A DNA stretch of 24,000 nucleotides, taken from an uncultured Peptococcaceae bacterium (GTDB lineage: Bacteria > Bacillota > Desulfitobacteriia > Desulfitobacteriales > Desulfitobacteriaceae). The position numbers and the translations under genes were made by a program. Each line of letters begins with the position of its first letter. The first letter of the stretch is position 1. Shown piece after piece: positions 12,343 to 14,094 of the stretch. The stretch spans positions 442,071 to 466,070 of the forward strand of contig CAURZJ010000002.1 in assembly GCA_963529635.1 (NCBI GenBank), given 5' to 3'. The notes under the pieces were generated by a model. It had not been told where the DNA came from, searched no databases, and was given only the letters and a program-made list of their open reading frames with translations.

Positions 12343-12639
12343 CTAACAACAACTATCGCTACTTCCAGAACAATCACAGCTCGGTTCTGTACCGGTCAGC
12401 CAACCCTTAATAATAGCTGATGCACAGCCCACACCAGGCTTAACCTCCAAGGCTTGAAACGGGCAATTTCTAACGCAGGCTCCACATTCCATACAGCGGT
12501 CCCTATCTGCAATCACTAAATTACGATCCGTCATTAAAAATACTTGATGCGGACAAACTTCGATACACTTACCACAGCCGGTACATTTTTCGGACTCAAA
12601 CCTTAAAATCGCGACATTTTTCAAATATAGAGGTCTCAT
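12343..12639 (-). CDS. hgcB: Mercury-methylation ferredoxin HgcB (2x[4Fe-4S])
   Basis: Two CX2CX2CX3CP motifs are present (CTGCGKCIEVCP, CMECGACVRNCP). There is an extra conserved Cys in GVGCASA and a Cys-rich tail CDCSGSSDSCC ending in vicinal Cys. The gene starts 32 nt downstream of hgcA. Confidence 0.85.
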   Translation of the reverse strand: MRPLYLKNVAILRFESEKCTGCGKCIEVCPHQVFLMTDRNLVIADRDRCMECGACVRNCPFQALEVKPGVGCASAIIKGWLTGTEPSCDCSGSSDSCC

Positions 12640-12671
12640 ATTTCTAACATCCTTCCTATAATCCTTCTATA

Positions 12672-13670
12672 CTAAATGAAACTATTGATTAAAATCAGAA
12701 CTCCCCCTAAGAATATGGAAATAATGATCGCAGGAACAGCCACTCGCATCTCTTTTAATACACCTGAAAAGGACGTAAAGGTCGAAGAACCTGTAAAATT
12801 CATAGCATAGTAGGCCGATACAGGAGGCAAAATCAGCAAATACCCTAATGCTCGCAGGAGACTATATTGAGGTGTAGCAGGCCATCCATTGAGTCCATTA
12901 ACAAGGAAAGCCCAGAGTAATCCTAAAAGCCATCCCTTCCAAGCAAAAGCCCTACCGGGAATCCAGGGCAACAGGATTGGGGTTAAGACACATCCTACGA
13001 TAATTGCACCTGCATAAGCGTAAAAATCAATAACACCGAAGGGCCCCATCCCAATAAGATTAAGTAAAAAGAGCATCCCAAAAACCATTAAGGAAACCTT
13101 ATACGTACTCACTAAATCCACTGGAGTCAAAACCATTCTATCATAAGCATTAAAATTGACGGTCCGCATCTCAGGCGTAGCTTTCATTCCTAAATTAAGA
13201 AACTCCTTAATATCCTTTGCCTTCACAGGCCCATAAATCACCTTGAAACCCGTGAACTTAGTAATCATATGTGCACTTACCCCCGGTGCGCCCAATTGGG
13301 GTAGAATGATGGTCTTATGAGATACAACCTTGGATAATTGAACGTTTGTTATACGGTTAAGTAGCTCTTGTGTACCGAAGGTTCCTTTTCCTGCAGCACA
13401 CCACACATTGACGCCCTTCGTATCAAGCGTTAGAATCCAGGCATTTATTCCCTTCAGTTCCTTCCTTAGCATATCAAAACTCAGTTTATAATTCGCACTT
13501 ACGAAGACTGGAGAATTGCTATCCGGTTTTCCCACACTATAAAGACCAGGCTCTACTTTAAAATTCATTCGGTCAATTCCCCAGCGAACCTTCCAGGCAC
13601 CCAGGATATCCTTAAAGGTCAATTCAGTTGACGTTGGTGTGATTATAATTTCCCTGTTTGTAATCTCCAT
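12672..13670 (-). CDS. hgcA: Mercury-methylation corrinoid protein HgcA
   Basis: The N-terminal soluble domain carries the diagnostic cap-helix motif GVNVWCAAGKGTFG, which matches N(V/I)WCA(A/G)GK. The C-terminal half has 4-5 predicted TM helices. The SD GGGGAGAG precedes the ATG. Confidence 0.9.
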   Translation of the reverse strand: MEITNREIIITPTSTELTFKDILGAWKVRWGIDRMNFKVEPGLYSVGKPDSNSPVFVSANYKLSFDMLRKELKGINAWILTLDTKGVNVWCAAGKGTFGTQELLNRITNVQLSKVVSHKTIILPQLGAPGVSAHMITKFTGFKVIYGPVKAKDIKEFLNLGMKATPEMRTVNFNAYDRMVLTPVDLVSTYKVSLMVFGMLFLLNLIGMGPFGVIDFYAYAGAIIVGCVLTPILLPWIPGRAFAWKGWLLGLLWAFLVNGLNGWPATPQYSLLRALGYLLILPPVSAYYAMNFTGSSTFTSFSGVLKEMRVAVPAIIISIFLGGVLILINSFI

Positions 13671-13713
13671 AATACTCTCCCCTTCTTCCTGTCACATTCC
13701 GCCAGCAGCTTTG

Positions 13714-14004
13714 CTACTCGCCATCCTCATGCGGCTCAATCTCGGACAAAAATCTAGCCACCTCTTCGACAACCTTGCTATTATTTCGGTAATACATCCA
13801 TGCCCCCTCACGTCTACCCACAACGATTCCACATTCACACAAAATCTTCATATGATAGGACAAGGTGGGTTGGGTAATGTTAAAATTCTCAAGTAATTGG
13901 CAGGCGCACCTTTCGCCCTCCGAAAGTAACTCAACGATTTTAAGGCGCGTCTCATCGGCAAGGGCCTTAAAAATCAGAATATATTCAAGGTAGGTATACT
14001 CCAT
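13714..14004 (-). CDS. arsR: ArsR/SmtB-family metalloregulator
   Basis: The winged-HTH core reads LADETRLKIVELL ... CACQLLENFNITQPTLSYHMKIL, with a CxC metal-site motif in helix 3 and a second CEC pair. I chose the ATG at 14004 (SD GGAGAG, 6-nt spacing) over the ORF-track start at 14028. Confidence 0.85.
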   Translation of the reverse strand: MEYTYLEYILIFKALADETRLKIVELLSEGERCACQLLENFNITQPTLSYHMKILCECGIVVGRREGAWMYYRNNSKVVEEVARFLSEIEPHEDGE

Positions 14005-14050
14005 GAAAATCTCTCCTATCGTCATCATATTTATAATTATCTATATGCTA

Positions 14051-14094
14051 ATTATATTCATTATATAGATGATTGTCTATATAATGAATATAAT
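14051..14094 (-). promoter_or_regulatory. Promoter with an overlapping 19-6-19 palindromic operator (probable ArsR autoregulatory site)
   Basis: The perfect inverted repeat ATTATATTCATTATATAGA (14051-14069) / TCTATATAATGAATATAAT (14076-14094) has a 6-bp spacer. On the minus strand, TAGACA (14074-14079), 17 nt, then TATAAT (14051-14056) lies entirely inside the palindrome. Confidence 0.6.

Follow-up and report, generated by a model that had tools for sequence, protein, structure and literature searches.

We examined a 24,000-nucleotide stretch of DNA from an uncultured Peptococcaceae bacterium (GenBank assembly GCA_963529635.1, contig CAURZJ010000002.1, positions 442,071 to 466,070 of the forward strand), which we refer to as the window and number from its first nucleotide. 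Near its middle lie three genes, arsR, hgcA and hgcB, arranged head to tail on the minus strand; the hgcAB pair is accepted as the genetic marker of microbes that produce neurotoxic methylmercury, and the gene ahead of it encodes a repressor of the ArsR/SmtB family. An earlier reading of the same DNA, made from its letters and open reading frames without database searches (hereafter the sequence-only reading), had proposed that these genes form a mercury-methylation operon under a metalloregulator, and the three open reading frames, coordinates and peptide strings that it gave were all found in the sequence as described. The genes, together with two segments inside hgcA, are as follows.

13714..14004, minus strand: arsR, ArsR/SmtB repressor of 96 amino acids; the longest open reading frame, 13714..14028, would encode 104
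12672..13670, minus strand: hgcA, 332 amino acids (NF040863, PF03599, alignment to the corrinoid iron-sulfur protein)
13386..13409, minus strand: codons of the HgcA cap helix NVWCAAGK, with the Cys91 codon TGT at 13398-13400
12687..13097, minus strand: HgcA membrane domain, residues 192-328, five hydrophobic helices by hydropathy peaks
12343..12639, minus strand: hgcB, 98 amino acids, a ferredoxin with two [4Fe-4S] clusters, Cys72 and C97-C98 (NF040864, motifs)

Direct reading of the sequence bore out the short spacers proposed earlier: arsR and hgcA are separated by 43 nt (13671-13713), and hgcA and hgcB by 32 nt (12640-12671).

Pfam alone detects the shared CdhD domain (PF03599) in HgcA and generic Fer4 domains in HgcB; the identity of the two proteins was tested with curated NCBIfam equivalog models, each with its own cut-off. 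HgcA scored 499.5 bits against NF040863 (cut-off 275), with a full-length match (model positions 2-325 of 325), and HgcB scored 133.8 bits against NF040864 (cut-off 99). The same HgcA reached 79.6 bits against the model for the gamma subunit of the Wood-Ljungdahl corrinoid iron-sulfur protein (CFeSP; cut-off 306) and 194.4 bits against the model for HgcAB-like fusions (cut-off 285). The profile search therefore upheld the identities first proposed for both genes, placing the two proteins far above their own cut-offs and HgcA far below that of the CFeSP model.

Published descriptions define HgcA by a cap-helix Cys and a five-helix membrane domain, and HgcB by a pair of CxxCxxCxxxCP motifs, another Cys some 12 residues beyond the second of them and at least one C-terminal Cys. 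HgcA of the window contains GVNVWCAAGKGTFG, and its cap helix NVWCAAGK spans residues 88-95. A sequence search of solved structures returned no HgcA, and the best matches were CFeSP large subunits; alignment to one of these, Moorella CFeSP (4djd_C), places a Thr opposite HgcA Cys91 (GLSVLTAYADGKF in HgcA, GVNVWCAAGKGTF in CFeSP). Hydropathy analysis gave five C-terminal peaks, at residues 192-206, 220-234, 246-260, 270-285 and 314-328, and over residues 1-170 the 19-residue Kyte-Doolittle mean never exceeded 0.92, in keeping with the soluble corrinoid-binding domain and membrane domain of four to five helices that had been described. HgcB carries the cluster motif CX2CX2CX3CP twice, as CTGCGKCIEVCP (residues 19-30) and CMECGACVRNCP (residues 49-60), followed 12 residues past the second motif by Cys72 (in GVGCASA) and, at the extreme C-terminus, by C97-C98; this extra Cys and the vicinal-Cys tail had both been picked out before, and the tail also holds C88 and C90. 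All published defining sequence features of HgcA and HgcB are present in the predicted proteins, and at the sequence level the pair is intact, with every residue known to be required in place. There is next to no chance that the corrinoid protein is instead a CFeSP paralog or a relative of the inactive HgcAB-like fusions, a reading that takes its appeal from the common CdhD domain being all that Pfam detects (PF03599), because the profile scores, the cap-helix Cys where CFeSP has Thr, the membrane domain seen by hydropathy and the separate, adjoining hgcB rule it out.

The window is identical in sequence to part of an 824-kb scaffold in an ENA metagenome assembly (ERZ28637290, SUKU23-1 scaffold_3), for which a literature search returned no paper. 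Relatives of HgcA were searched in a collection of one genome per species, and the comparison set comprised 80 related hgcA loci (cited below by labels such as L028), 78 of which had enough flanking sequence for adjacency counts. The closest HgcA, from a metagenome-assembled genome (MAG) of a Desulfitobacterium sp., is 81% identical, and the next several dozen matches, at 60-79%, come from Desulfitobacterium, Desulfosporosinus and other Bacillota. Because the best species-level match is just 81% identical, the host is an undescribed and distinct uncultured species of Desulfitobacteriaceae, within the Desulfitobacterium/Desulfosporosinus group. Across the set, hgcB adjoins hgcA in 78 of 78 loci (median distance between alignments, 23 nt), and in 57 of 78 the gene immediately before hgcA, in the same orientation, is an arsR, with arsR-hgcA gaps of 32-93 nt in close relatives; NVWCAAGK is found in 78 of 80 loci, and the CC tail of HgcB in 74 of 78. 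Since the model scores lie far above their cut-offs and the gene order is repeated in dozens of species, the arrangement is not a product of chance. With its intact hgcAB pair behind arsR, the locus is an ordinary example of a known system, in which it is a new species-level member. Desulfitobacterium and Desulfosporosinus are listed among hgcAB-positive test strains, and on genetic prediction only the host is a likely producer of methylmercury, which is useful to environmental surveys and expected for the clade. Several strains of these two genera have reportedly been confirmed by experiment as methylators.

The features that bear on transcription, in the order in which they are met on the way into arsR, are listed next.

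14160..14183, minus strand: intrinsic terminator of the upstream VanW/CWB2 gene, a 10-pair stem with 5 GC pairs, then TTTTTAT
14051..14094, no strand: perfect inverted repeat of 19+6+19 nt, 100% complementary, enclosing the whole promoter; proposed extended ArsR operator
14063..14082, no strand: operator O1, ATATAGA-N6-TCTATAT, 0 mismatches, overlapping the -35 hexamer and spacer
14074..14079, minus strand: -35 hexamer TAGACA, from the promoter scan
14051..14056, minus strand: -10 hexamer TATAAT, from the promoter scan and sequence reading
14027..14046, no strand: operator O2, ATATAGA-N6-TAAATAT, 2 mismatches, 36 nt downstream of O1 and covering the expected transcription start and leader
13701..13721, minus strand: small hairpin over the arsR stop codon, -12.1 kcal/mol, z -2.35, no U-run

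The VanW/CWB2 gene ends at 14198 and its terminator follows at 14183-14160; the fold, at -16.1 kcal/mol (z -3.58), was matched in stability by 0 of 200 shuffles, and it is predicted to isolate the arsR transcription unit. The sole strong minus-strand promoter that we found stands upstream of arsR: TAGACA-17-TATAAT, which agrees with TTGACA-17-TATAAT at 11 of 12 positions and is the best promoter-like site in 11200-14400. Neither intergenic gap (13671-13713 or 12640-12671) has a terminator or a minus-strand promoter-like site. Given these short terminator-free gaps, the terminator before the promoter, the single strong promoter upstream of arsR and the conserved adjacency of the genes, a single arsR-hgcA-hgcB operon is a well-supported prediction, as the sequence-only reading had also concluded from the gaps and the absence of a hairpin terminator in them. 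Two other candidate terminators were set aside: the small hairpin over the arsR stop codon, which was rejected because no U-run follows it, and a site within hgcB (12437-12417), the one terminator-like hit inside the unit, which is weak and of a kind found at chance level (5 hits, with 2.8 +/- 1.8 expected).

We regard it as very unlikely that arsR and hgcAB are separate units, with ArsR repressing only itself or distant targets and hgcAB expressed constitutively from a weak promoter of its own. The literature long considered hgcAB expression constitutive, a small hairpin does overlap the arsR stop codon, and 21 of the 78 related loci have no adjoining arsR; however, the 43-nt gap contains no minus-strand promoter-like site, the hairpin has no U-tract, close relatives keep the arsR-hgcA gap at 32-93 nt, and co-transcription of arsR and hgcAB is published for Pseudodesulfovibrio. 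Moreover, one locus without an adjoining arsR (L028, Desulfitobacterium sp. Sab5) has a core site of the operator directly 5′ of hgcA, about 65 nt upstream.

The inverted repeat at 14051-14094 is the longest perfect one in the window, and none of 5000 shuffles of the intergenic region reached its 19-nt arm, the maximum being 14; this region has a G+C content of 23%, and the window as a whole 43.7%. The operator core occurs twice in the window, where 0.08 matches would be expected, and no operator-like site was found in the window elsewhere than at 14027-14082. Related loci totaling 647 kb contain 54 core matches (with at most 2 mismatches), of which 43 are positioned no more than 200 nt upstream of arsR; tandem pairs of the core are usual there, being exactly 36 nt apart in 12 loci and 34-37 nt apart in 15. 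The tandem arrangement before arsR is thereby shared by related Desulfitobacteriaceae, and the close isolate Desulfosporosinus paludis SB140 (L022) has this operator too. Operator and regulator also vary together. Of 16 loci whose ArsR has QPTLS(Y/H)H as recognition helix, 15 carry the ATATAGA-N6-TCTATAT core; where the helix reads QSTLSHH, 33 of 35 loci have another inverted repeat instead (TCGATNTGA, about 12 nt, TCANATCGA); and a third ArsR clade with QPRVSRQL (L029, L031, L038, L043, L051) has neither operator motif. This covariation between operator and recognition helix is the strongest computational evidence for the palindromes as predicted ArsR binding sites. The second operator type, for its part, has a TATAAT-like box in its spacer (e.g., L053, L055, L066 and L070).

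A full-text literature search for an hgcA promoter palindrome returned nothing relevant and no account of such an hgcAB operator, and in the paper on arsR2-hgcAB of Pseudodesulfovibrio mercurii ND132 the strings "operator" and "palindrom" have 0 occurrences. The detail added here to a known system is modest, namely a predicted promoter and tandem operator that are unusually clean and are supported by cross-species comparison. The operator architecture nevertheless offers a direct handle on the signal that induces hgcAB, and so bears on what hgcAB is for.

The operator also helps to place the start of arsR, which is probably the ATG at 14004 (96 amino acids) rather than that at 14028, because GGAGAG stands 6 nt 5′ of the former, because the public gene call on the identical contig has 96 amino acids, and because the ATG at 14028 sits within O2, near the expected transcription start.

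Other layouts around the operator and arsR were seen among the relatives. In L036 (2622-4963), arsR is transcribed divergently from the tandem operator and a MarR-family gene stands directly 5′ of hgcA; the longest hgcA open reading frame there (putative start) would add a Cys-rich N-terminal extension of about 80 residues. In a Desulfosporosinus MAG (L023, 2251-3903), a 550-amino-acid protein of the CoA-disulfide reductase family, scoring 443.6 bits and hence under the equivalog cut-off of 578.8, is encoded between arsR and hgcA.

The regulator itself is a canonical member of its family. It scores 63.7 bits against HTH_5 (PF01022; cut-off 22) and 96 bits against NF033788 (cut-off 55), its AlphaFold2 model (pLDDT 94) has the canonical order H-H-H-H-E-E-H, and the top Foldseek matches to that model are all ArsR/SmtB proteins (TM 0.7-0.86). 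The CxC that had been read as an intact metal site (ERCACQLL) is indeed present, as C33/C35 at the start of alpha3, and it is invariant in 58 of 58 hgcA-adjoining ArsRs and in 119 database homologs. A second CxC, absent from the earlier account, lies at the end of the recognition helix (C56/C58, in KILCECG); C56 is shared by 36 and C58 by 27 of the 58 hgcA-linked ArsRs. A metal or metalloid is the predicted effector, on the strength of homology and gene neighborhood only.

A different signal is conceivable, although we consider it rather improbable: the protein may not sense metals or metalloids at all, and may respond to S-adenosylhomocysteine (SAH), or to oxidation or persulfide formation at its cysteine thiols. 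Treatments that raise SAH affected ArsR2 of ND132; HgcAB uses S-adenosylmethionine (SAM) as methyl donor, which makes SAH its product; and sulfide or redox sensors with Cys pairs (SqrR, BigR, HlyU) occur among the fold matches. On the other hand, this 96-amino-acid protein does not have the ligand-binding methyltransferase-like domain described for the SahR-type ArsR4 of ND132, and the BigR model gives it 47.5 against a cut-off of 155. Its invariant alpha3 CxC coincides in position with the classical As(III)/Cd site, ELCVCD is shared by Lmo1102, the solved structure that matches best in sequence, and relatives regulate acr3 and arsC.

We propose the following model. One sigma-70-type promoter (TAGACA-17-TATAAT, 14079-14051) would drive all three genes, and an ArsR dimer on each of two tandem 7-6-7 palindromes, O1 and O2, would block RNA polymerase; the operon would be auto-repressed through the dimer on O1, over the -35 hexamer and spacer, and that on O2, over the transcription start. 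An effector at the invariant alpha3 CxC (Cys33/Cys35), most likely As(III) or a similar thiophilic metalloid, would release ArsR from the DNA. Of the products, HgcA is by its sequence a membrane-anchored corrinoid protein whose cap-helix Cys91 stands at the site of the lower axial ligand to Co, and HgcB a dicluster ferredoxin with Cys72 and a flexible Cys-rich tail. In the mechanism published for orthologs, HgcB reduces the corrinoid to Co(I), which in the purified P. mercurii complex receives its methyl group from SAM; the Cys-ligated methylcorrinoid then transfers the methyl group to Hg(II), and the cysteines of the HgcB tail deal with the metal. By analogy, Cys-on corrinoid ligation and Hg(II) methylation are predicted for the HgcA of the window. 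As an overall explanation, a mercury-methylation operon arsR-hgcA-hgcB that is auto-repressed by ArsR and released by a thiophilic effector appears to us likely, and we hold it with good confidence.

Several observations weigh against this explanation. On the side of the regulator, ArsR has neither the third alpha3 Cys of the R773 type (Cys32/Cys34/Cys37 there, CACQLL here) nor the C-terminal Cys tail present in 36 of 58 relatives; by a published account, two cysteines suffice in R773 ArsR. ArsR2 of ND132 has, by published description, the four-Cys set C47/C49/C86/C88 with a spacing of 39, compared with C33/C35 and C56/C58 and a spacing of 23 here, so that sensing may differ between the two proteins. 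The ND132 regulator, which controls hgcAB, responded to As and to SAH-raising treatments as well, and not to Hg. The level of the hgcAB transcript in ND132 also predicted methylation rate poorly. At the locus itself, no terminator is evident after hgcB, where the next 111 nt give a fold no more stable than that of shuffled sequence (z 0.10), and no match to Acr3, an ArsC-like protein or ArsD was found in the 24-kb window, so that the link to arsenic rests on relatives.

In those relatives the link is frequent. At least one of acr3, an arsC-like gene and arsD lies in the hgcAB flank of 35 of the 80 related loci; their Acr3 scores 448.6 bits (cut-off 282.8) and their ArsD 136.4 (cut-off 90), and the ArsC-like protein, of 137 amino acids, belongs to the low-molecular-weight phosphatase family and falls under the equivalog cut-offs. 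The layouts include arsR-acr3-arsC-hgcAB (L013, L026, L027, L030, L040), arsR-arsC-hgcAB (L004, L034, L035) and arsR-hgcAB-acr3(-arsC) (L024, L029, L032, L054, L068, L070, L071, L081). In L034 and L035, both arsR-arsC-hgcAB, ArsR is 66% identical to that of the window and the same tandem operator is present. Co-localization of hgcAB with ars genes and repression linked to arsR are already in the literature, and in a lake metatranscriptome arsR-linked hgcA genes show lower expression.

One may therefore postulate that the genes are true hgcAB orthologs whose selected and regulated role is other than Hg methylation, for example as arsenic or metalloid cargo (such as transfer of methyl to As) or in the turnover of halomethanes, with Hg a side reaction. 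We take this to be possible though on balance unlikely. In 35 of the 80 related loci hgcAB lies within or beside acr3, arsC and arsD sets under the same arsR; ND132 hgcA is induced by As and not by Hg; an hgcAB knockout of ND132 is more sensitive to As(V); and a 2026 preprint describes dechlorination of CCl4 by heterologously expressed HgcAB. Set against this, the window has no ars gene, the literature examined shows no biochemical activity of HgcAB on arsenic, and the evidence on halomethanes is a single preprint. The postulate concerns the purpose of the operon, moreover, and is compatible both with the gene identities and with an ability to methylate Hg.

A more specific version of this idea is that ars-type operons of Firmicutes carry hgcAB as a cargo module, with one ArsR clade and one tandem operator, ATATAGA-N6-TCTATAT, governing arsR-acr3-arsC-hgcAB, arsR-arsC-hgcAB and the stripped arsR-hgcAB form seen in the window. 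We offer it tentatively and think it doubtful. If it were true, the selected role of HgcAB would be a response to arsenic or metalloids and Hg methylation a by-product, and a genome-wide search for the operator signature could delimit the regulon and put the cargo idea to the test.

On the upstream side of the operon, the gene for the VanW/CWB2/Big_4 cell-wall protein (14198-15940) lies between arsR and a complete set of Opp/Dpp-type genes on the minus strand (16072-21780), encoding the binding protein, two permeases and two ATPases of a peptide or nickel ABC transporter; a second Opp/Dpp-type set on the same strand (22062-23910), of which just the ATPase genes are visible, continues past the end of the window. 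On the other side, a gene for a CDF cation-efflux transporter (11355-12332, plus strand) converges with hgcB, with 10 nt between the stop codons and no clear terminator between them. We considered this transporter as a member of the ArsR regulon and rejected it: there is no operator-like site near its promoter, and a CDF homolog is found near hgcB, 1.7-3.7 kb downstream, in just 3 of 80 relatives (L014, L017, L028).

Farther from the operon, the minus strand carries a gene for heme-copper oxidase subunit I at 8054-9810 (PF00115, 185 bits; the similarity to ccoN is weak). The gene before it encodes a small cytochrome c and gives a weak NorB cytochrome-c-like match; the two look like a nitric-oxide-reductase-type pair, in a presumed anaerobe. 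Directly upstream of them is a perfect inverted repeat of 14 nt with a 6-nt loop (arms 9981-9994 and 10001-10014). A PspA/IM30 gene followed by a gene for a Tim44-like domain protein (5529-7352, minus strand) probably forms an envelope-stress pair. At the edge of the window, a plus-strand open reading frame (20..484) encodes the C-terminal part of cobS (adenosylcobinamide-GDP ribazoletransferase); it matches TIGR00317 at positions 97-240 of 241 with 63 bits, which is below the cut-off because the gene is truncated. The sequence-only reading had drawn attention to cobS, 12 kb away: the gene is present and fits a host that makes or salvages corrinoids, but we found no evidence linking it to hgcAB. 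An Rfam scan of the window at gathering thresholds returned no cobalamin riboswitch and no other known RNA, and no tRNA was found.

Among known systems, the closest relatives are those of cultured Desulfitobacterium and Desulfosporosinus (D. metallireducens, D. dehalogenans, Ds. youngiae and Ds. acidiphilus); the closest HgcA relatives, 73-81% identical, all belong to these genera, some members of which differ from the window in having acr3 and arsC between arsR and hgcA or no adjoining arsR. The reference HgcA and HgcB, those of P. mercurii (Desulfovibrio desulfuricans) ND132, share the two-gene architecture. By published residue descriptions, ND132 HgcA has the same corrinoid domain and five-helix membrane domain, with the cap-helix Cys at position 93 (Cys91 here), and ND132 HgcB has two CxxCxxCxxxCP motifs, Cys73 (Cys72 here) and a C-terminal pair at 94/95 (97/98 here); the host here is a Firmicute, however, and its HgcB has two extra tail cysteines, C88 and C90. 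CFeSP, in its large subunit AcsC/CdhE (PDB 4DJD, 2H9A), has a corrinoid-binding domain homologous to HgcA residues 26-159 (E 3e-11), but differs in its cap-helix Thr, in having a [4Fe-4S] domain of its own and no membrane domain, and in its length of about 445 amino acids.

With respect to regulation, the nearest parallel is arsR2-hgcAB of P. mercurii ND132 and P. hydrargyri BerOc1, in which an ArsR/SmtB gene likewise lies directly 5′ of hgcA on the same strand, the genes are co-transcribed and ArsR regulates hgcAB (Goni-Urriza 2020; Gionfriddo 2023). The judgment of the sequence-only reading that the system is not novel was accordingly correct, since co-transcription and control by ArsR were already published; the phyla that the ND132 arsR2 paper lists for arsR-hgcAB do not include Firmicutes by name, and a tandem operator is readable here whereas none is described there. 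The classical ArsR and CadC repressors (E. coli R773 ArsR, S. aureus pI258 CadC, Listeria Lmo1102) resemble the ArsR of the window in their winged-helix order alpha1-alpha2-alpha3-alphaR-beta1-beta2-alpha5, in a CxC at the start of alpha3 and in a palindromic operator overlapping the promoter of their own operon, which is read here from sequence and comparison. Compared with them, the ArsR of the window has neither a third alpha3 Cys nor an N-terminal Cys arm; it carries an additional CxC where the recognition helix ends, and the cargo of its operon is hgcAB in place of an efflux pump or reductase.

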